Positions 7,869-62,165 of a stretch of 64,000 nucleotides of DNA are shown piece after piece. How positions within the stretch are numbered: position 1 is the first letter of the stretch; each line of letters begins with the position of its first letter. The notes beneath the pieces are model-generated. The model was not told the DNA's origin. It ran no database searches and saw nothing but the letters and a program-made list of their open reading frames with translations. The DNA comes from a phage: NCBI GenBank assembly GCA_028130375.1, contig GCA_028130375.1_3658.1. The stretch is one strand, 5' to 3'. The translations under genes were made by a program, and so were the position numbers.

Positions 7869-9614
7869 ATGGCGCAAGACATGACAAGCTTTGAGCAGGC
7901 GGTAGATCAAGTAATTGTTGATTCTGAACGTTTGCACTTGGTTGTCAACGGTAACGCTGTGGATGAAGTTGTCGTAGAGGATGGGACCACCATCCCTACG
8001 GTACGAAAAGCCATGCTTGACAACCTTTATTTTAAAACGCCACCGATCCCTTGGGCGTATGGTGCATCCACAACAGTTTTTAACCAGCTGTATGAGTTTA
8101 AAGGGGACACAGGCCCTCAGTGGTGGTACGCTCCCGCAGCATCAAAATCTAACCCGGTTAGAATGCCAGCAGATCCTTCACAATCTCCAAACTGGAGATT
8201 ATACACCGATTCTGCAGTAATGGCAAAATATTACGCAAAACTTAACAGCCCAAGGTTCGAAGGTGACCCGCGAGTACCTACACCTCCAATGGACGATAAG
8301 TCAGAGTCTATAGCAAACACAGAGTTTGTTGTTGACTATGTTGATAGCATATTTGAAGCCATGGAGGGGATGAAAGTTACTGTAGGGTCTTTGGTGGTAA
8401 AAGGTCTTACAGAACTCGCCAACACCATAGTTGGAGGCACCCTTACCTTACATGGGCCTGTTAATGGAGCAGATTCTACTGCACGCTTCAGGAACCTAAT
8501 CCTCACGGCAAATACTTCTACACTCACTTTTGCGTGGAGCGATCCTAAGCATGCAGACTGGAGAAGCACAGAGCTGCAACCTCATGAAGTGTCCACCCAC
8601 AGGATTATAGCTGACACTATAACTTCCGGGAAACCAGTGGCTAATAATAACGATGTGCATTTTGATGGTCTGGGTAATAACTTTTTTGACTACGTGTACA
8701 TTCGTGGTAATGCCATGAAGTCAGCAACCGAACCGACATTGCAGGTCGATGGGACCACCAGGGTTAAGAACCTTGAGGTGACAGGCACCGTTACAGGGAT
8801 AACCTACTCTGTAGATGGCACCATGATCTACCCTAGCTATATTGAAAGCACGGGTGACGCATTAATAAATGGTGATTTGGAGGTTGGCGGGTCTGTAGTT
8901 ATTCGAGGTACGGCCTCTATCCAAAACATAGCTCTGAATACCTTAAGAGTCAATGAGCGTGCAACTTTTGAAGGAGAAGGGCTTACAGCCAACAAAGGTG
9001 TAATTACCGAGCTGACAACAACCACTTTAACTGCAACAACTGCAAACTCTGAAAACTGCAACGTTACCCGCAACTTGCAGGTAAATGGAGATGTCAGTTT
9101 AAACGCAGCAGGGACTGGCACCACCTCTGTTCACAACCTTGAAATATCCGGCACGGTGACCGGATGGCTGCCAGACTTCTCTAATGTCAACTTTGTCTGT
9201 AATGGCATTAACTCCAGTGGTAAGATAACCACCTCTCAAGAAATTGAGGCTGGTAAAACCATCACTGCCCCTACTTTCCACGCAGGGAAGGTAGATTTCG
9301 ATTTAGAGGAGGTTGACGCGTCCAGTGGGACATGGACACCTAACGGGCAGGCCAGTATGTATGTTGTCCACGCTAAAGGGGATTTTACAATAGGGCAGTG
9401 GCCTGGGACATCAGCGGAAGATAAACCTTATCCGTTCACTGCGGTTATCTATGTAATTCAGGATGCTGTAGGTCACAACGTGACTTTGCACGATAAGTAT
9501 GCTATCCTGTCGGCAACACCTGTTATTAACAACAGGGCTAACAGTGTTACCTTGCTGCAATTAACGTATTGTGGTGTTGGTGATATCGTAGACGTAGTAA
9601 TTGCACAACGTTAA
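7869..9614 (+). CDS. Tail fibre / tail spike protein
   Basis: 581 aa, Thr/Gly/Asn-rich with repeated TGTVTG-type motifs typical of beta-structured fibre shafts. Confidence 0.5.
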   Translation: MAQDMTSFEQAVDQVIVDSERLHLVVNGNAVDEVVVEDGTTIPTVRKAMLDNLYFKTPPIPWAYGASTTVFNQLYEFKGDTGPQWWYAPAASKSNPVRMPADPSQSPNWRLYTDSAVMAKYYAKLNSPRFEGDPRVPTPPMDDKSESIANTEFVVDYVDSIFEAMEGMKVTVGSLVVKGLTELANTIVGGTLTLHGPVNGADSTARFRNLILTANTSTLTFAWSDPKHADWRSTELQPHEVSTHRIIADTITSGKPVANNNDVHFDGLGNNFFDYVYIRGNAMKSATEPTLQVDGTTRVKNLEVTGTVTGITYSVDGTMIYPSYIESTGDALINGDLEVGGSVVIRGTASIQNIALNTLRVNERATFEGEGLTANKGVITELTTTTLTATTANSENCNVTRNLQVNGDVSLNAAGTGTTSVHNLEISGTVTGWLPDFSNVNFVCNGINSSGKITTSQEIEAGKTITAPTFHAGKVDFDLEEVDASSGTWTPNGQASMYVVHAKGDFTIGQWPGTSAEDKPYPFTAVIYVIQDAVGHNVTLHDKYAILSATPVINNRANSVTLLQLTYCGVGDIVDVVIAQR

Positions 9615-9621
9615 TATATCT

Positions 9622-9648
9622 AACCGCTCCTGACGGGGCGGTTTTCTT
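9622..9648 (+). terminator. Putative rho-independent terminator
   Basis: Imperfect hairpin aaccgc..tgac..gcggtt followed by ttttc, just after the 9614 stop. Confidence 0.45.
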
Positions 9649-9662
9649 ATCTGGAGAACACA

Positions 9663-12600
9663 ATGCTTCCAATCCCTTTGCTAAAACTTGGTCGTCATTT
9701 CCTCGATAAGAGGGGTGGAATTAAGGAACTTGCTGTTCTGTCATACCCAATAGACAACAGTGATGGTACAAGCAACACAGTATCCTATGTAAATAGCTTA
9801 GCTATACTTTTTGATGATGGTCAGCTTAATATTACTGGCTATAACAAGTTCGGAGAGTGCCGCACTGGGGATCGTAGCCCTATAAACTATCCGAGCGAAA
9901 CAGCCTGGAATGTTGATCATGTGTGGAGAGCAGACCGCGCGTTTGTGATCCGGACTTTTGATAACCAGTTTTTCTACATCGGCTGCACTGCAGGTCTTAT
10001 CGGATCCACTGCGGCAGGCGGTAATGATGTTTGCGTAAACGAGTGGACACCACTCCCAGAGCAGATTGTTAAAGGATTGCACCTTGACACCCACCCAGAA
10101 CGCCTTATTGAGGTGATGGGCGGTATTAACAACACTGTCTGGGTTATTGCAGAGGCAGAAGGTACTGGCATACTTAACCTGTATGGATCTGGTAACAACA
10201 CCTACGGATCTTTGCATGTAGATAAAAATCAGCATGCAACCCCTGTAAAGATTGGTGAGACATCGGAAAATCCTGAAACAGGCCCTTGGAAAAACCCAAG
10301 CATCAACTGTGAGGTGCATGACAACTCTGTTATTTTCGGTGGTCCTAGGGGTTTCTGGATTGCTGGATACGACTTTCTGAGAAATAACAGTAGAAACGAC
10401 CTTGTTTGGCCTCCTGTGCAGGTTACTCGTAACGATTTGAGGGGCATTCCTGCAGATGAGGAGTGGAAAGGGTTTATGTGTGGTCCTAACGGGGCAGTAA
10501 TTGCTACACAGAGGATGCATAGACCCGATGACCAGCAGCTTGTTAACGTATTTTATGGTCAAAACATTTGGGGAGATGATACATGGCGGGAACTGAATAT
10601 CACCTACACCCATGAGGTAATGATGGCTCGTGGGTACGGCACAAGTGGCATTTTCTTCAATAATGGCACTAAGCAGTATCGTGGGTTCTCTCGCAACTTA
10701 TGTAATGATATTGGTGCACAATCTGCAAACAATAGTCCTAGGGCCGATTTTATCCACTATCAAGCTCTTGCTACAGCTAAATATGTTGAGCAACGCCTGC
10801 CAGTCAGCTGGACAGAGAGTGTTTATTTCCAAGGCATCCACAGAGAAGGTTTCTTAGGGACCTTTACTGTTGTTAATGGTAAACTTTGGTGGTCAGGTAT
10901 CCCAAGGGGAAGTTTTACAGGCTCTAATAACCTGTTTGGCGGCAGACTTAATAGTCAGGGGTTCACAGAGGTTCCTGAGAATTGGTATAAAAATGTCCCA
11001 GTAGACAGTTGGGGCGTTGATGATATTTTCGACGTTAATGGTGTTAGCAGTGTTAGCAATATCTACATTGGTGACACGGTCAAGATGAAATTGAAGCCTC
11101 AGCCAGAGGGAGCTACGTTCATCATTGACAAGATTGAACTGGTGAATGCTGCAGGTACGGTTGTTACAGATGCAAATTACCAATTCTCCACCAACTGGAA
11201 CCACGGCGGGGCCAACGAAGTTGTTGTTACCCAGTATAACAGAAATGTTAACAGACGTGGCCTGTACTCTGTAAAAATAACCTATCATGACAAGCATGGC
11301 ACAGGCAGAACTCACACGACAAGGACTTTGAACTGGAACACCATAGTTCCTGCGTATCCGTCCAACGGCAAGTGGCATACCGTTGGTAGAAACAAGCAGT
11401 TCCATGTTAACGATACTGTATACTTTGGGCTGAATGGGACCCAGCCTGCAGTAGAAGGGGATACATCGTATATGGTCAGACTCCACAGAATGGATGCTGG
11501 ATCAGTCACTTATGATGTGACCCAAGAGATCTACGATCAAAGACGCGCCACGTATGACAATATTGTGAAAACACAAGCCTTGTGGGAGTTCAATCCTAAT
11601 GGCAAGGGTGGTAAAATGTTGCAGATTAATGAGCAGAACGGAACGTCGTTGACTGTTCACGAACACCCAGACCCTTGGCCTGATCCTGGAAAACCTCACC
11701 CGGGAGCTCGTACACTGAAAATTGTCAGCCATGATGCAGGATATTTCGGAATACGCTGGGAAGCTACAGTAAGATATGTCGACGGGACAACAAACAACAT
11801 AGGGATTACACTTGGCGGCACTAGTGAAGATAACTCGCTGAAAATTGCCTACACGCCCAGAGGTATCTCTATTGATAATATGGATGTTGTTCGCAATGGT
11901 TACGGCGATGTGAATGTCAAAGTTACTCTTGGCGAACATCTTGGTGGGGAAAGGATCATCATGTATGCCTTTGATCATGATCCACGCACCAATGGAACTT
12001 ATGCAAATCAGGCATGGAGTTACCTGATAAATGCACCTGAGCCGAATACTAAAGAGTTCTACTATGGTATGAAGCGAGATGTGTGCAAGAAAACAGGAAC
12101 ACATGACTGGATTGCTATCTGCGTTAAAGATGAGCGCACAGCTTGGGATGAGCCTGTTAACAGATGGTTCATAGGTATTCCTACCAGAAGTGATAAGTAT
12201 GTCGCAGAATATATTGTATGCATGGGCGGTACCAACCTAAACATGTGTTGGAACGAAGATGTAAACAAATACTCTGATTATGACTATATGAGGGATTACT
12301 CTTGTAATTTGTGGTTTAACCAAACTACAGGTTACCCTCCAAGACAGGCGAGAGTAAACCCTGCAATCTTCACAGACACGCAGGTTTTCTTGACAAAACA
12401 GGCCAACGAGGTTCAGACCTTCAAGAATAAATACGATCCTAACAAGTGGTTCTACAACTGTTACGGCGCATTTTTCTGGGGACCTGGTGAGTTACCTGGT
12501 GGGGGATCTTGCTTGAATGAGGCAACTTACGCAAGTGACTACATCATGGGGCAGGTCAAGAAGTATAAGATAATCCCCGGTCCTGAGACTTTGGGCAATG

Positions 12601-48279: not shown

Positions 48280-48589
48280 TACTTGAAAATTCCTGGCATA
48301 TCAAGTGTAAGGAGGATTTCTAAAATGGATTTCCTCCTTTTGATATTTCACCGGGTTAGATATTTTAAAATTCTTAGAAAATCAGAAAATGGATCGAAAA
48401 CTAAAATGGATTTTTCAGAGCAGGCGCGACAAACCGAATCACTCATCCTATCGTTTGCACCATATTCCAGTCCACCATTACAGATTTCCCGCACATGCTT
48501 ACATCCTTCTACTGGAACTTCCTCCACTTACCCTTGACCTTTTATGGTAATAATCTAACCACTATCTTGAGGTTGCGGTACAGCTTTCC

Positions 48590-48770
48590 GGGTACTCGAT
48601 CTGTTTTTCGTTTCAAAGATTGAATTTTCTTAAAATTTTTCTCGATAAATTTCTCAGTACTCGATCTGTTTTTCGTTTTCTGAATCGGATTTTCTGGAAA
48701 TCGTTCCGGAGCTCGACCTGAAATTTTTGGGAACGAAATCGATTTTTCGTTTTCAGAAATGGATTTTTAA
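48590..48770. repeat. AT-rich direct repeats (tactcgatctgtttttcgttt x2 plus degenerate copy)
   Basis: Exact 21-bp repeat at about 48591-48611 and 48655-48675; related cgatttttcgttttc near 48740; aaatggattt motif recurs 4 times in 48320-48760. Confidence 0.6.
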
Positions 48771-48881
48771 AATTTCTATATGGGAATATTTTATGGGATA
48801 CTGTTTTATAGGAAATTGTTACGGAGGGTAATTAGCACGCTAATTAAATTTATTAAATGCGAGGAGTTCTCATTTAGAATT

Positions 48882-48900
48882 TTGAATGATAATCATTCTC
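48882..48900. promoter_or_regulatory. Fur-box-like operator (15/19 match to GATAATGATAATCATTATC)
   Basis: ttgaatgataatcattctc. Confidence 0.45.
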
Positions 48901-49016
48901 GTTTGCAGAATAACGGGCACCCCCGGTGATTGTCTCCCGGCCCCTGTTGCCCCGGCTTGTTATTATAGTATCACACAGGACAAAGAAGGCAAGGATTTTT
49001 TGCATAAATTTTTAAA

Positions 49017-49035
49017 TGATAATGATAACCGTTCT
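49017..49035. promoter_or_regulatory. Fur-box-like operator (16/19 match)
   Basis: gataatgataaccgttctc; followed, like the first copy, by a GC-rich about 35-bp element. Confidence 0.45.
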
Positions 49036-49055
49036 CATTTTATGCAGCGCCCATC

Positions 49056-49090
49056 CCCGGTGGTTATCTCCCCCGTCACCGGTGCCTGCC
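49056..49090. repeat. GC-rich dispersed element (inverted copy at 58031-58066, partial copy at 48918-48945)
   Basis: ccggtggttatctcccccgtcaccggtgcctgccg versus reverse complement of 58031-58066 (about 31/35 identical). Confidence 0.55.
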
Positions 49091-49529
49091 GTCCTTTCGA
49101 TAGGTATATTGTGCCACCTGGCGGGGCCGCTGTCAACACCTTTCAAAAAAAATTATAACCAGGTGCGCCCACTGCCAGGACCTGGCGGGGCCAGTCTGGC
49201 AGGGGAGAGTGAAAGCTTGCAAACCTGGTAGGGCTATGCTATAGGGTAGGCAACAACTGGAGAGGAGGTACAAAAATGAAAGGTAATATGATCCCCTGGA
49301 AAATGTAGCGACTAATGACGCTGAGGCTATCGCCATGGTTGAAAAGGCTATGGCGGGAGCGTTGGAACATAAAGAAGAGTACGAAAAAATGGTGGTTAAC
49401 CTGGCGGGGGCGGCAGGTGGATTCTATCATAAAAATAATTTAAAATAGTCGTTGACAACAAGGTTAATCATGGTATTATTACCCTACAAGGTGAACAACA
49501 CCGCACTAACCAGTAAAGAGGATAAATTT

Positions 49530-49727
49530 ATGAACGCATACGGGATCAAAGTACGTCGCAACACTCGCCAGGTGGTCACCAATCAAGTGATTTGCCGGGT
49601 GGATGTAACCATCAACAACGGGCAAGGCCTTTATAAATTTCGTCGCGGTCATAGCTATACCCTGCAACAGCTTAATCGTTGCGCCCTGACAAAAGGTCAG
49701 ATCAACCACTGGTTTAATAAAAAATAA
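49530..49727 (+). CDS. Hypothetical small protein (first gene of small-gene cluster)
   Basis: ATG 49530 after aaagaggataaa; upstream TTGACA at 49463-49468. Confidence 0.35.
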   Translation: MNAYGIKVRRNTRQVVTNQVICRVDVTINNGQGLYKFRRGHSYTLQQLNRCALTKGQINHWFNKK

Positions 49728-50678: not shown

Positions 50679-50725
50679 TTTATTTTTAGATGGCCTTGAC
50701 TTCAGGGCCATCAATAAAGTAAACT
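50679..50725 (+). repeat. Promoter-bearing stem-loop repeat, copy 1
   Basis: ttatttttagatggccttgacttcagggccatcaataaagtaaact; 7-bp stem gatggcc / ggccatc with TTGACT in the loop, TAAACT downstream. Confidence 0.65.
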
Positions 50726-50757
50726 AATCTCAACTAAGCGAAAAAGGGGGCTTTAAG

Positions 50758-50877
50758 ATGAGCACTACACGCCAATACACAAAGGTAACTATTATCGTTT
50801 GCGTTGTCGGTTACATCCTGGCGCAAATGTTAATGAGTAGCGCTAACAGTTTTGCAAAATTTTTCTTAAATTTTTAA
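50758..50877 (+). CDS. Tiny hydrophobic peptide (39 aa)
   Basis: Unlisted short ORF after the repeat; RBS aaaaaggggg; sequence MSTTRQYTKVTIIVCVVGYILAQMLMSSANSFAKFFLNF. Confidence 0.3.
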   Translation: MSTTRQYTKVTIIVCVVGYILAQMLMSSANSFAKFFLNF

Positions 50878-51300: not shown

Positions 51301-51346
51301 TTATTTTTAGATGGCCTTGACTTCAGGGCCATCAATAAAGTAAACT
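51301..51346 (+). repeat. Promoter-bearing stem-loop repeat, copy 2
   Basis: Identical to copy 1 over about 46 bp, directly after the 51298 stop. Confidence 0.65.
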
Positions 51347-51387
51347 TTATACTGTTAACACTGAACTAATTCAGAGGAGTTAAAACC

Positions 51388-55041: not shown

Positions 55042-55085
55042 TTATTTTTAGATGGCCTTGACTCCAGGGCCATCAATAAAGTAAA
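55042..55085 (+). repeat. Promoter-bearing stem-loop repeat, copy 3
   Basis: Same element with one substitution in the loop (ttgactcc vs ttgacttc). Confidence 0.65.
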
Positions 55086-55131
55086 TTTAAACCCTGTTAA
55101 AATACCACACAGTTAACAAGGAGTGATAGAC

Positions 55132-57627: not shown

Positions 57628-57779
57628 CCATGAGAAAGATAATCATCACCTTGGGGATTGTGGCGGGATCGCTGGCGCTCTTTCCCCTTATGGTTAGGTA
57701 TGTGCTGATCAGTATTGTCCTGGTAGTCAGTGATCTATTGGAAACGGTTGGCACCTTGTTTTAAAGAGCGATAAAAAAA

Positions 57780-57971: not shown

Positions 57972-58030
57972 TATTTATAAACTACAAAACAGGGCTTGCA
58001 ATGGTCCTGTTTTTTGTTATACTTATTCCA

Positions 58031-58066
58031 CGGCAGGCACCTGGCGACGGGGGAGACAATCACCGG
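58031..58066. repeat. GC-rich dispersed element, inverted copy
   Basis: Reverse complement matches 49056-49090. Confidence 0.55.
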
Positions 58067-58181
58067 GCCTGCCTGTCATATAAGAACTATAAAAACCGTT
58101 GACATCTGCCATGGGGTGGGGTAACATTTATCTTGAAGGGGCAAAAGTGCCCACACAACAACCAGGAGAGAGGAAAACATT

Positions 58182-59637: not shown

Positions 59638-60298
59638 TTTTTAACTGAATTATCAAGGGGCTTAGGCCCCTTTCTTTTTGTCTGCTCTTCCCCCCTACCA
59701 TAAACGGCCCTACCTGGCAAGTGGAATAATTGACGAGCCATCAATCCCACACACTGTACAAATATACATGTAAAATAGCTATTGCATAACCTTTCATTGT
59801 GTGGTAGCGGTGCTATTTTTTACCCGTTTTCCTTCCAAAATTGCACGTAATGCAGTTATTGCACAAAATTTAACCTGATGCACATCTTCAATATCTTGTC
59901 AACAACTAAAAATCTTTATAAGTCATACACTTACACAAACCAAAGAGCGTGTTCTACGTGAAAAATCGAGTATAACTATAGCCGCCAGATCTCAGAATTT
60001 ACGTACGCTCGCCATTCTATAGCCTGCTAAGCATTTATTCCAACCATAGAATAACGGAATAGTCAATACCTGCATAAAATAATTATTCGTGTAAACTGCA
60101 TAACATAAATCAGCTTAGGTGTCAACATTTTTCGTAAACAGTCTGAAATTATCACGGTGAGTTATCATAAACAGAGAAATCTTTAGTCGTCTAATGTTTA
60201 CTGTACGTTACTATACTAACTGAAATCATTAGATGACTAATAGAAAGATAAGAAATAATTAACAATACAATTATTTTATCTGTAACAATAAGGCAACT

Positions 60299-60530
60299 AT
60301 GCAAACGAATGGCATGGCGCGACGGAGTCGCGACATAATATAAAAGCAGTAACCATCACCCCCGTGATAGTTTGTCTGCAAACTATTAATCAGATCATAG
60401 TTGCCTTGTATTTAGTTAATCATGACATAACAAGCAAGGCAACTATAGATCTTCTAATAGTTGCCCTGCTTTTATATTATGTCATAGATTATTAACTTGC
60501 TAATAGTTATCATGCAAACGAATGGCATGG
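60299..60530. repeat. Nested inverted/direct repeat block (GGCAACTAT arms; 20-bp direct repeat atgcaaacgaatggcatggc)
   Basis: ggcaactat at about 60292 and 60437 with reverse complement atagttgcc at about 60399 and 60458; exact 20-bp direct repeat at 60299-60318 and 60511-60530. Confidence 0.6.
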
Positions 60531-60533
60531 CTT

Positions 60534-60608
60534 ATCATTTCCATGTAAACTGTCAAGGTGTAAACTATCCAGGCGTAAACAGTCTATGCGGGAACAATCT
60601 ATACGTGA
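60534..60608. repeat. Iteron-like tandem array (5 copies, period about 15 bp, core GTAAAC-W-GTC)
   Basis: gtaaactgtcaagg / gtaaactatccagg / gtaaacagtctatg / gaacaatctatacg / gtgaacagtgaaac; further GTAAACAG copies near 60100, 60136, 60907, 61676. Confidence 0.6.
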
Positions 60609-61254
60609 ACAGTGAAACATGAAATAATAACAGTCGTTATTGTTCCATATTGTGTCATAGTATGTCACCATTATGTCTAAAGTGTCTAAGGTGTCAGACA
60701 AGTTTTTCTCCTCTTTGTCAAGTGCTGCATGAAAAATTTACAATCTTGTATGGTAGCATTTTTGCGGCCATGTTTACATTCAGCGATGTATGTATAAGCC
60801 TTGTTGTGTGGGCGTTTAGACGTCTAGACGGTTGGAAGTCCACAGGTCAATATCTAATCTATCGGCTGCTAACTATATCCCACACAAATAGTAATAAATA
60901 TAATTGTTATATGCGTAAACAGTAACTCATGTTATCAATCCCTGTATGTATCGCCAGTGGTGCGCATAATGGGTATTATGTTAAATTGCCCGTAATGATA
61001 ACAGTTCTCACAATGATAGGTATTCTCATTCATCCACACAAAATAGGTTGCAAATGTTGTGCCACTGTGTGAACGGCCTGGCCTATTAATTTCTCTCACT
61101 GCCTCGATATTTGAGAATTGTTATAAGAATGAGAAGTATTCCCATTCCGTCCGCCTGGCAGCGCTCCTGTAGGTCCTGCAAGGACTCTAGCTGAAAGCTA
61201 GACCCTTCGGGCCTCCCTGTAGGTCAGGTCAAAATCGTGGCAGAACTGAGCCTG

Positions 61255-61470
61255 TTCAGATATTTCTGGCTGACTCTTCAGGTCTGTGTGGGAAAAGCCA
61301 ACCTCTCCGGCGGGGCAGGGGGAGGTCAATTAAAAAATTTACGTGGTGTATGAAGCGCTCTTCAGGTAAGGCAGGTATTATGGGATGAAACCCTCTTCAG
61401 GCAATGATATTTGTGGGTGTGATATTTGCTGGAAAGCCAGATATGACGGGACTCCCGGCGGGGCAGGGGT
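61255..61470. repeat. GC-rich direct repeats (CTCTTCAGG several copies; cYccggcggggcagggg x2)
   Basis: ctcttcagg at about 61275, 61349, 61393 (again near 61805); ccggcggggcagggg at 61307-61321 and 61455-61469. Confidence 0.55.
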
Positions 61471-62165
61471 AGTACAGACAGGGAAAATATGAGAATGTAG
61501 TTGGGGAAATTGATCAGACAGGTAGAGTATGGAATATGTTACAAGTATGTTAAATATGGAGGTTGAATATCTGTAGGATTTGTGTGTAAAATCAAAGACT
61601 TAAGGGGTGTTGTGGTATTTTCTATAAATAATTCAAGTTTAATAGGCAATATTTGTCTCTATCCGCTTTGTGTGGTAAACAGATTCAGATTAGATTGGTT
61701 TACAAGTGTATACATAATATACAAATTAAAGATACAAGAAACCCCCCTCCCCCCTTCGGCTACCATTCACCTTTTCCTCTGACTGGTACTTAAACACTTA
61801 TTCAGACTCTTCAGGTTATCACCCATATATCATATGGCAGTGACTGGTGTCCTCCGGCCCCTCTTTCGTCACCCGTCCGCTTCGCCATGCTAATGCCATA
61901 GCTAATGGTTCGGTTGTTCACCCTGTTCACTCAGGTGTATCTCTATACCCCTTCAAACCGAAGAGAACAGAAAACCCGAATTACTCGGTAAAAGAAAAGA
62001 GAAGAACTTAATTTTATCAGGATAGGCAAGAATGTCAAGGCATGACTGCTCACTAAACAAGCAAACAGTCATGTGTGGGAGGTAAGTGATTGTGGTGGTA
62101 GGAAATTTAGTTGAAAGATGTGTTATAGGTGCTTCCAGCACTTTAGCCGGGCAGCTAATTGTGTG

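Follow-up and report, generated by a model that had tools for sequence, protein, structure and literature searches.

The 64,000-nt stretch of phage DNA analysed here (the window; contig GCA_028130375.1_3658.1) comes from an rV5-like Vequintavirus: it shares 90-97% identity with rV5-like members of this genus, its closest match is the O157 typing phage 14, and it is collinear with positions ~30.1-94.1 kb of phage Bas59 (MZ501061.1). Our subject is a pair of sites resembling the binding site (box) of the host iron regulator Fur, together with the GC-rich element that follows each of them, in a ~900-bp stretch (48540-49270) flanked by small early genes that all read on the plus strand. This stretch is considered not to code for protein, although several records annotate small open reading frames (ORFs) there, and the proteins encoded next to the module match only PHROGs of unknown function. 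A second group of boxes, designated B, is found within 59640-62165, where 2.5 kb without genes separate convergent gene blocks; the rV5 genome paper marks this region as its "non-coding" box and lists 33 promoters, none of them at the 48.9-kb locus.

The first box (ttgaatgataatcattctc, 48882-48900, within cluster A1) matches the Fur consensus at 15 of 19 positions, as the preliminary description had it; the second (gataatgataaccgttctc, within cluster A2) agrees at 16 of 19, also as described, but lies 1 bp to the right of the position first assigned to it, at 49018-49036 instead of 49017-49035. These are the top and joint-second consensus matches on both strands of the window, the single other 15/19 match being at 57632. 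The same GC-rich element had been said to follow each strong box, and indeed CCCCGGTGNTTNTCTCCC is found 20 and 19 bp past them, in exact copies at 48921-48938 and 49055-49072, with 0.02 copies expected by chance. Weaker relatives had been reported near 61 kb; they are real and more numerous than noted, the additional and weaker boxes being A0, B1, B2, B3 and B4, which brings the total to seven, three (A0-A2) around 48.9 kb and four (B1-B4) at about 61.0-61.15 kb. The regular expression A[AT]TG.[TG]A[AG]...TTCTC retrieves six of the seven, missing B4, and has no further match on either strand of the 64 kb.

All sites were scored with two position weight matrices (PWMs), an asymmetric 19-mer and a palindromic 21-mer, obtained by expectation-maximisation from 14 intergenic regions that precede classical Fur-repressed genes in Escherichia coli MG1655 (fhuA, fepA-fes, fepD-entS, fepB-entC, fecI, cirA, fiu, tonB, exbB, ryhB, fur, sufA, fhuE and feoA), and shuffled controls preserved the composition of 200-bp blocks. 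Scoring against the presumed host had been proposed as a check on the sites, and with these E. coli matrices A1 and A2 are level with the best host sites (fhuA, ryhB). With the 19-mer, host sites range from 14.6 to 25.3 bits, while A1 scores 24.8, A2 22.1, B2 13.4 and B1 below 12, the maximum of 200 shuffles being 21.7; with the palindromic model, the host range is 13.3-24.1, A1 scores 24.4, A2 24.3, B1 18.0 and B2 17.1, and the maximum of 300 shuffles is 21.9. Both A1 and A2 exceed every shuffle in both models and are the best Fur-box matches in the 64 kb. Sites of at least 17 bits in the palindromic model number six, against 0.20 expected, all of them within the two gene-free regions or at their edges, and Bas59 (a phage type of ~131 kb) has none outside the part corresponding to the window. 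Copies in the B cluster score lower than A1 and A2: B1 and B2, both of which are also found in Bas59, fall inside the host-site range of the palindromic model, and B4 and B3 (11.6 and 13.6 bits) are at or below its bottom, where the lowest host site scores 13.3.

The internal organisation of the sites also resembles that of Fur operators. Extra sites lie exactly 6 bp from A1 and A2 (48882; 49012 and 49018), the second A1 site scoring 14.3 bits and the A2 19-mers, at 6-bp steps, scoring 19.7, 15.1 and 22.1 bits (24.3 and 18.6 in the palindromic model); overlapping sites 6 bp apart occur in footprinted Fur clusters (Chen et al. 2007, PMC2189734). A1 has a 16-mer, ATAATCATTCTCGTTT, in common with the MG1655 fhuA Fur site, and A2 is similar to the host fecI site, GATAACCATTCTCATATTA. 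All phage copies carry TTCTCA where the textbook motif has TTATCA, and the idea that this marks a different protein was dropped, because the GAGAAT hexamer is likewise used by the host sites of fhuA (AATAATCATTCTCGTTTAC), ryhB (AATAATCATTCTCATTCGC), fecI, exbB, feoA and fepB. When the ryhB promoter region is aligned with every module, the best local alignment is box-to-box, with z = 3.3-8.0. When a matrix built from 23 phage boxes of six lineages is compared with the host Fur matrix, the correlation in register is r = 0.93, as opposed to 0.64 at an offset of 6 bp, 0.31 at 3 bp and about 0 at 1, 2, 4 and 5 bp. With scores in the host range, dyad symmetry with 6-bp overlap, and an excess over chance accompanied by conservation between genera, the sites pass these sequence-based tests of a Fur box, and at that level the identity given to the sites in the preliminary description holds.

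Both box clusters are almost invariant among six Vequintavirus genomes, A1 being unchanged in all of them. A distant BLAST search shows that ~60-100 bp over A1 and the GC-rich element are 80-90% identical in other genera (Mydovirus, Seunavirus, Certrevirus and Phapecoctavirus), the hosts of which are Klebsiella, Salmonella, Cronobacter, Pectobacterium, Erwinia and Enterobacter; the GC-rich element itself is 80-90% identical between genera. In Mydovirus, Seunavirus, Phapecoctavirus and contig L014, the box adjacent to the GC-rich element keeps a fixed offset and scores 24.5-28.6 bits in the palindromic model (26.0-27.4 bits where the 19-mer PWM was applied as well), and one to three further boxes lie upstream at a spacing of ~29 bp. 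The 29-bp spacing of A0 to its proximal box recurs in Mydovirus and Seunavirus, where the upstream box is a near-perfect palindrome. The proximal box of phage 4MG is a perfect 7-1-7 Fur box, and Certrevirus is the exception, with its strong site one box further upstream, at -49. Proteins flanking the module show no tblastn similarity between the loci of the different genera and no neighbour is conserved, indicating that the non-coding module is under stronger constraint than its neighbours. Derivation of the module from a host genome was rejected, as no homologue is present in 5,426 E. coli genomes. Three Mydovirus contigs from Klebsiella phages (L008, L013 and L016) carry sites of 20-23 bits in the 19-mer PWM, such as GTAAACGAAAATGACTATC and AATAATGATTCTCATTCGT, 7.7-10.6 kb downstream of the module, which may be the counterpart of the B cluster. 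We also found 16-19 "Campylobacter phage" records (MG0656xx, labelled C. jejuni) that are 86-97% identical to the present E. coli phage type over non-coding DNA, and their host label looks doubtful.

Alignment of nine modules and a scan for promoter-like sites revealed a unit larger than first noted, which includes the boxes, a weak putative rightward promoter, the GC-rich element and a predicted leftward sigma-70 promoter, and which is duplicated in tandem here (Table 1). The -35 hexamer and spacer of the putative rightward promoter, P_R1, are occupied by the Fur box, and its hexamers are retained in most lineages (TTGAAT, GTGAAT or GTAAAT, and CAGAAT, CTGAAT or GAGAAT). The predicted leftward promoter is a much better sigma-70 match than the rightward one and sits 55-60 bp from the boxes; it is the top minus-strand match, at the same module position, in eight of the nine modules, the TTG of its -35 hexamer is invariant in the alignment, and other genera have the versions TTGCAA-17-TATATT, TTGATC-16-TATTAT and TTGCAA-17-AATAAT. 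P_L1 is preceded by an A/T tract (48993-49015), with a predicted start near 48956 and a direction toward the boxes, and P_L2, which in the promoter scan matches at 10 of 12 positions plus the TG, lies ~60 bp from A2, the same distance as P_L1 from A1. A 14-mer, ACCTGGCGGGGCC(G/A), occurs three times in this vicinity (49116-49129, 49180-49193 and 49399-49412), its first copy overlapping the P_L2 spacer and its last lying inside a small ORF.

Since the putative rightward promoter is in the boxes and the predicted leftward one ~60 bp to their right, the GC-rich element lies between face-to-face promoters and is more than just the beginning of a downstream transcript. In the predicted leftward transcript, the element would form the first ~50 nt, in the G-rich sense. 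The four N positions of its core are variable (CCCC, GGCC, GGGG, GGTT) and have no consistent pairing partner. A weak inverted repeat, ATAGCGGG...CCCGCTAT, flanks the element, with several changes that are G-U-compatible in the G-rich sense and with pairing in 86% of cells in the correct register versus at most 55% in slid controls, which hints weakly at a 5' stem-loop.

A third copy of the GC-rich element, with one mismatch, is found on the minus strand at 58051-58068 with no adjoining Fur box; indeed, no match of at least 11.8 bits to the Fur model was found near it. The unit to which it belongs is paralogous to module 2, is inverted relative to it, and points with the genes. Because this copy lacks a Fur box, the promoter and GC-rich element appear to constitute a unit of their own, to which boxes were added in two of the three copies. 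The third unit also contains GGCAGGC...GCCTGCC, which could form a perfect 7-bp outer stem, and lies directly upstream of a strong promoter at 58099.

Table 1. Positions of Fur-like boxes, predicted promoters and GC-rich elements in the 64,000-nt window
Feature	Position	Strand	Description
Box A0 (AAATGCGAGGAGTTCTCATTT)	48855-48875		Weak Fur-like site 29 bp upstream of A1 (motif match at 48856, plus strand); 14.4 bits, palindromic E. coli Fur model
Fur-box cluster A1	48882-48906		Overlapping sites 48882-48900, 48884-48904, 48888-48906
Putative weak promoter P_R1	48882-48911	+	TTGAAT (48882-48887), 18-nt spacer, CAGAAT (48906-48911)
GC-rich element 1 (GGGCACCCCCGGTGATTGTCTCCCGG)	48915-48941		Conserved core GCA-N4-CGGTG(A/T)TTGTCTC
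Predicted promoter P_L1	48962-48992	-	TTGCCT (48992 to 48987), 19-nt spacer, TATAAT (48967 to 48962)
Fur-box cluster A2	49012-49042		19-mers at 49012, 49018, 49024; 21-mers at 49014, 49020
GC-rich element 2 (GCGCCCATCCCCGGTGGTTATCTCCCCCG)	49047-49075		Exact pattern at 49055-49072; aligns with element 1 and with other genera
Predicted promoter P_L2	49108-49136	-	TTGACA, 17-nt spacer, CACAAT with TG; T-tract upstream (49141-49152)
Third promoter and GC-rich unit	57996-58098	+	TTGCAA, 16-nt spacer, TATACT (57996-58023), then GGCAGGCACCTGGCGACGGGGGAGACAATCACCGGGCCTGCC
Boxes B1 and B2	60993-61031	+	Tandem, 18 bp apart; starts 60994, 61012
Boxes B4 and B3	61110-61147	-	Inverted, ~80 bp from B2; B3 61146-61128, B4 61128-61110

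The product of the module is probably non-coding, as neither direction leads into a conserved ORF. Several records annotate ORF 48886-49158 as a hypothetical protein, a reading that was rejected: the ORF has no ribosome-binding site, and the Mydovirus frame stops after 7 codons. A tRNA or pseudo-tRNA was likewise discarded, since ARAGORN finds none in the window or in loci L001-L004. In the Klebsiella phage record OY978796.1 (L003:1211-1364), a tRNA-Met and a tRNA-Ile are annotated exactly over the boxes and GC-rich element, which is probably an annotation error. Rfam yielded no match at the gathering threshold in the window, only chance-level matches in 48500-49550, and none in the loci of three other genera. 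A ryhB-like small RNA gene was rejected because the Fur box alone is significantly similar to the ryhB locus; a 12-mer, TTGTCTCGCGAT, common to that locus and phage R7 falls below the shuffle maxima. A G-quadruplex or R-loop origin was dropped because the leftward strand is not consistently G-rich, the bases being opposite in ESCO13. The next plus-strand gene, at 49277-49448, codes for 57 residues (phrog_21957), is conserved in further Vequintavirus genomes and has its own promoter-like site; in the window it is broken after 10 codons, with a C run one base shorter than in MaxTheCat and APECc02, and the break could be a true frameshift or a sequencing error. Finally, record starts were considered as physical genome ends and rejected, as the "attL" in PQ002170.1 appears to be an assembly overlap.

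Several other elements were noted around the module. Upstream of it, three 57-nt direct repeats (48585-48780; 65 and 74 bp apart) contain GATC as well as a small hairpin with T-rich sequence after it, and matching triple repeats precede the Fur boxes in Seunavirus, Mydovirus and Certrevirus; the repeats could serve as binding sites or as terminators for the genes upstream. In other genera, a ~90-nt element of high conservation (CTACCGGCGATCCACCTTCC...GTTAGCCCCGCCTTTTCGCCGTGGGGTGGCG) lies ~130 bp downstream of the module (L003:1380-1470, L005:1670-1760, L006:1650-1735 and L156:1095-1180); it is absent from the window, its hairpin has an A-T pair swapped for G-C between lineages, it has no Rfam match, and it looks like an undescribed non-coding RNA. 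Three near-identical promoter units at 50680-50745, 51301-51366 and 55042-55107, in which the -35 hexamer TTGACT lies in a hairpin (GGCCTTGACTTCAGGGCC) and is followed by TAAACT or TAAATT, have the appearance of cassettes that combine a terminator with a promoter.

We consider it slightly better than an even bet, with a probability of roughly 0.55, that binding of host Fur-Fe2+ makes transcription across the module differ between iron-replete and iron-starved hosts. A1 and A2 would be high-affinity operators for host Fur in a conserved, tandemly duplicated non-coding module of the early region, each unit of which would combine two or three overlapping or neighbouring boxes, a weak rightward sigma-70 promoter, a GC-rich element of ~40 bp and a strong leftward sigma-70 promoter preceded by an A/T-rich tract. 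The leftward transcript would cross the GC-rich element in the G-rich sense and meet the boxes ~55-100 nt after its start. In an iron-sufficient host, Fur-Fe2+ dimers would occupy the boxes and spread over them, occluding the rightward promoter and probably blocking or truncating the leftward transcript; iron starvation of the host would leave the boxes empty and alter transcription across the module, and part of the phage early programme would thereby be tied to host iron status. The scheme builds on the match of the boxes to host sites, their excess over chance, their conservation and the architecture of the module; that Fur binds, that both promoters are active, which sign the effect has and what the product is are inferences from these.

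It should be kept in mind that several observations weigh against this scheme. The PWMs derive from just 14-15 host sites, with expectation-maximisation seeded by the consensus, and an 18.8-bit match, probably due to chance, lies within a 39-codon ORF (50784-50802), so that scores below about 20 bits are unreliable on their own. At position +/-4, phage boxes have G at 0.65 and T at 0.32, as against T at 0.59 and G at 0.22 in the host; this bias, the sole clear difference between the two matrices, could point to another protein. P_R1 is weak, matching the consensus at 8 of 12 positions, is unrecognisable in module 2, and lacks the -11 A in its Mydovirus version. Operators located 55-100 bp downstream of a start would be an unusual arrangement for Fur. 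Folding of the candidate transcripts gave no significant structure on either strand (z from +2.0 to -1.4), and full-text searches of open-access papers found no Fur boxes described in this subfamily or in lytic phages.

Fur operators are known on chromosomes, plasmids and prophage cargo genes. The phage boxes resemble chromosomal operators of Enterobacterales (fhuA, ryhB, fecI, fepA-fes and entC-fepB) in the 19-bp or 7-1-7 motif, GATAAT and GAGAAT hexamers, 6-bp overlaps, range of scores, and overlap with the -35 and spacer of a promoter, here the putative rightward one. They differ in that the phage carrying them is strictly virulent, that no gene for iron uptake or storage accompanies them, that they form tandem arrays at 29 bp facing a predicted, convergent strong promoter, and that they prefer G at +/-4. 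Host Fur operators on phage DNA also have precedents: the stx1 promoter of H-19B-type phages carries a Fur box. Another is found with sitABCD on lambdoid phages, again on prophage cargo (PMC6969025). In both of these cases, however, the box belongs to cargo genes that benefit the lysogen, whereas in the present phage it lies in the core early regulatory region of a lytic phage and is conserved throughout the subfamily.

With respect to promoter arrangement, the module is reminiscent of the temperate switches of phages 186 (pR/pL) and P2 (Pe/Pc), in which promoters face each other and phage repressors decide on lysogeny. As in those switches, convergent promoters, both of them predicted here, are tens of bp apart and an operator array covers one of them, and by analogy it is plausible that transcriptional interference is part of the mechanism of the module; unlike in those switches, the operator matches a host metal sensor.

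A scan of viral contigs with a degenerate box returned more than 120 loci, mostly unrelated, and was useful just for the arrays of T5-like phages. T5 itself (NC_005859.1, L158) has three boxes of 21.9, 28.6 and 23.8 bits at 9551-9716, inside the annotated injection stop signal, and arrays are also present in Salmonella phage SP01 (L058:4871-5071, with ~29-bp spacing) and phage chee24 (L039:3513-3690). The T5 arrays adjoin paired DnaA boxes and lie within the terminal repeat. They correspond to the DRD repeats of the T5-like terminal-repeat (LTR)/injection stop region (iss), which have been called conserved but unexplained, with no mention of Fur (10.1101/866236). As in the rV5-like module, these repeats place the same box arrays in a non-coding region more conserved than the surrounding genes; unlike the module, they belong to phages of an unrelated family and are located beside DnaA boxes, in the terminal repeat. 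Because two unrelated virulent families carry the same host-type boxes, a shared host protein is favoured over a phage protein. We would also suggest, tentatively and with more doubt than confidence, that unrelated families (Vequintavirinae and Stephanstirmvirinae on the one hand, Demerecviridae on the other) independently placed host Fur arrays in their most conserved non-coding control regions, in which case Fur would be a routine input to, or structural component of, lytic development.

Fur might also bind without regulating any promoter, either in an architectural role (at an origin, in packaging or in DNA entry) or at a sink that titrates it away from host iron-uptake genes, a possibility that we regard as rather unlikely. 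The weaker B cluster would suit such a role, as its 2.5-kb gene-free region is crowded with repeats: ATGCAAACGAATGGCATGGC occurs twice (60299 and 60512), as does CCGGCGGGGCAGGGG (61307 and 61455), ATAGTTGCC units are present in direct and inverted order, and there are also an 18-bp perfect inverted repeat (60332/60466) and iterations resembling GTAAAC(A/T)GTC (60540-60610), making the region a candidate origin or packaging region. The position of the T5 arrays inside the injection stop signal, beside DnaA boxes, and the iron-dependent class I and class III ribonucleotide reductases encoded by the phage point the same way. However, a genome contains just ~3-7 sites, the window shows no enrichment of DnaA boxes, and the position-conserved promoter hexamers on either side of the boxes speak for control of transcription.

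Alternatively, the boxes could be operators of a phage-encoded dimeric protein with Fur-like specificity (palindrome AATGAGAAnnnTTCTCATT), serving an iron-independent early/late switch. The phage consensus is a perfect 8-3-8 palindrome with its own preference at +/-4, tandem arrays of two to four boxes at ~29 bp are like phage operator arrays, and the face-to-face promoters recall switches of the lysis/lysogeny type. Yet no Fur homologue or Fur-like protein was found in the phage, and no gene beside the module is conserved between genera, although a regulator could be encoded elsewhere. Many of the boxes, including the perfect 7-1-7 site of 4MG, use TGATAAT half-sites, and the GAGAAT half-sites are shared with E. 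coli fhuA, ryhB, fecI, exbB, feoA and fepB. Finally, the occurrence of the same boxes in unrelated T5-like phages is more easily explained by a shared host protein. A phage regulator is therefore the less economical explanation, and we hold it to be improbable. That the matches arose by chance in A/T-rich promoter DNA and have no function as boxes is very unlikely: the Fur consensus is A/T-rich and similar to -10 elements, one 18.8-bit match does fall inside an ORF and shuffles now and then reach 21-22 bits, but both main sites surpass all 200 and all 300 shuffles, six sites of at least 17 bits, all within gene-free regions or at their edges, stand against 0.2 expected, high Fur scores persist through sequence change in six lineages, and the matrix correlation of 0.93 is obtained in register only.

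Regulation by host Fur would have consequences for these phages as a group. The module, being more conserved than any neighbouring gene, is a good target in the search for an unrecognised cis-acting function or small RNA. Iron starvation is the normal state in the gut, and, if unrelated families did place host Fur arrays in their control regions independently, these phages would sense it and adjust early transcription, DNA entry or replication. If Fur binds the boxes, it becomes a testable candidate protein for the long-unexplained repeats of the T5 injection stop region; moreover, a broad-host-range subfamily used in biocontrol and therapy would respond to the iron status of its host, and its performance would be affected in the iron-poor gut, serum and urine.

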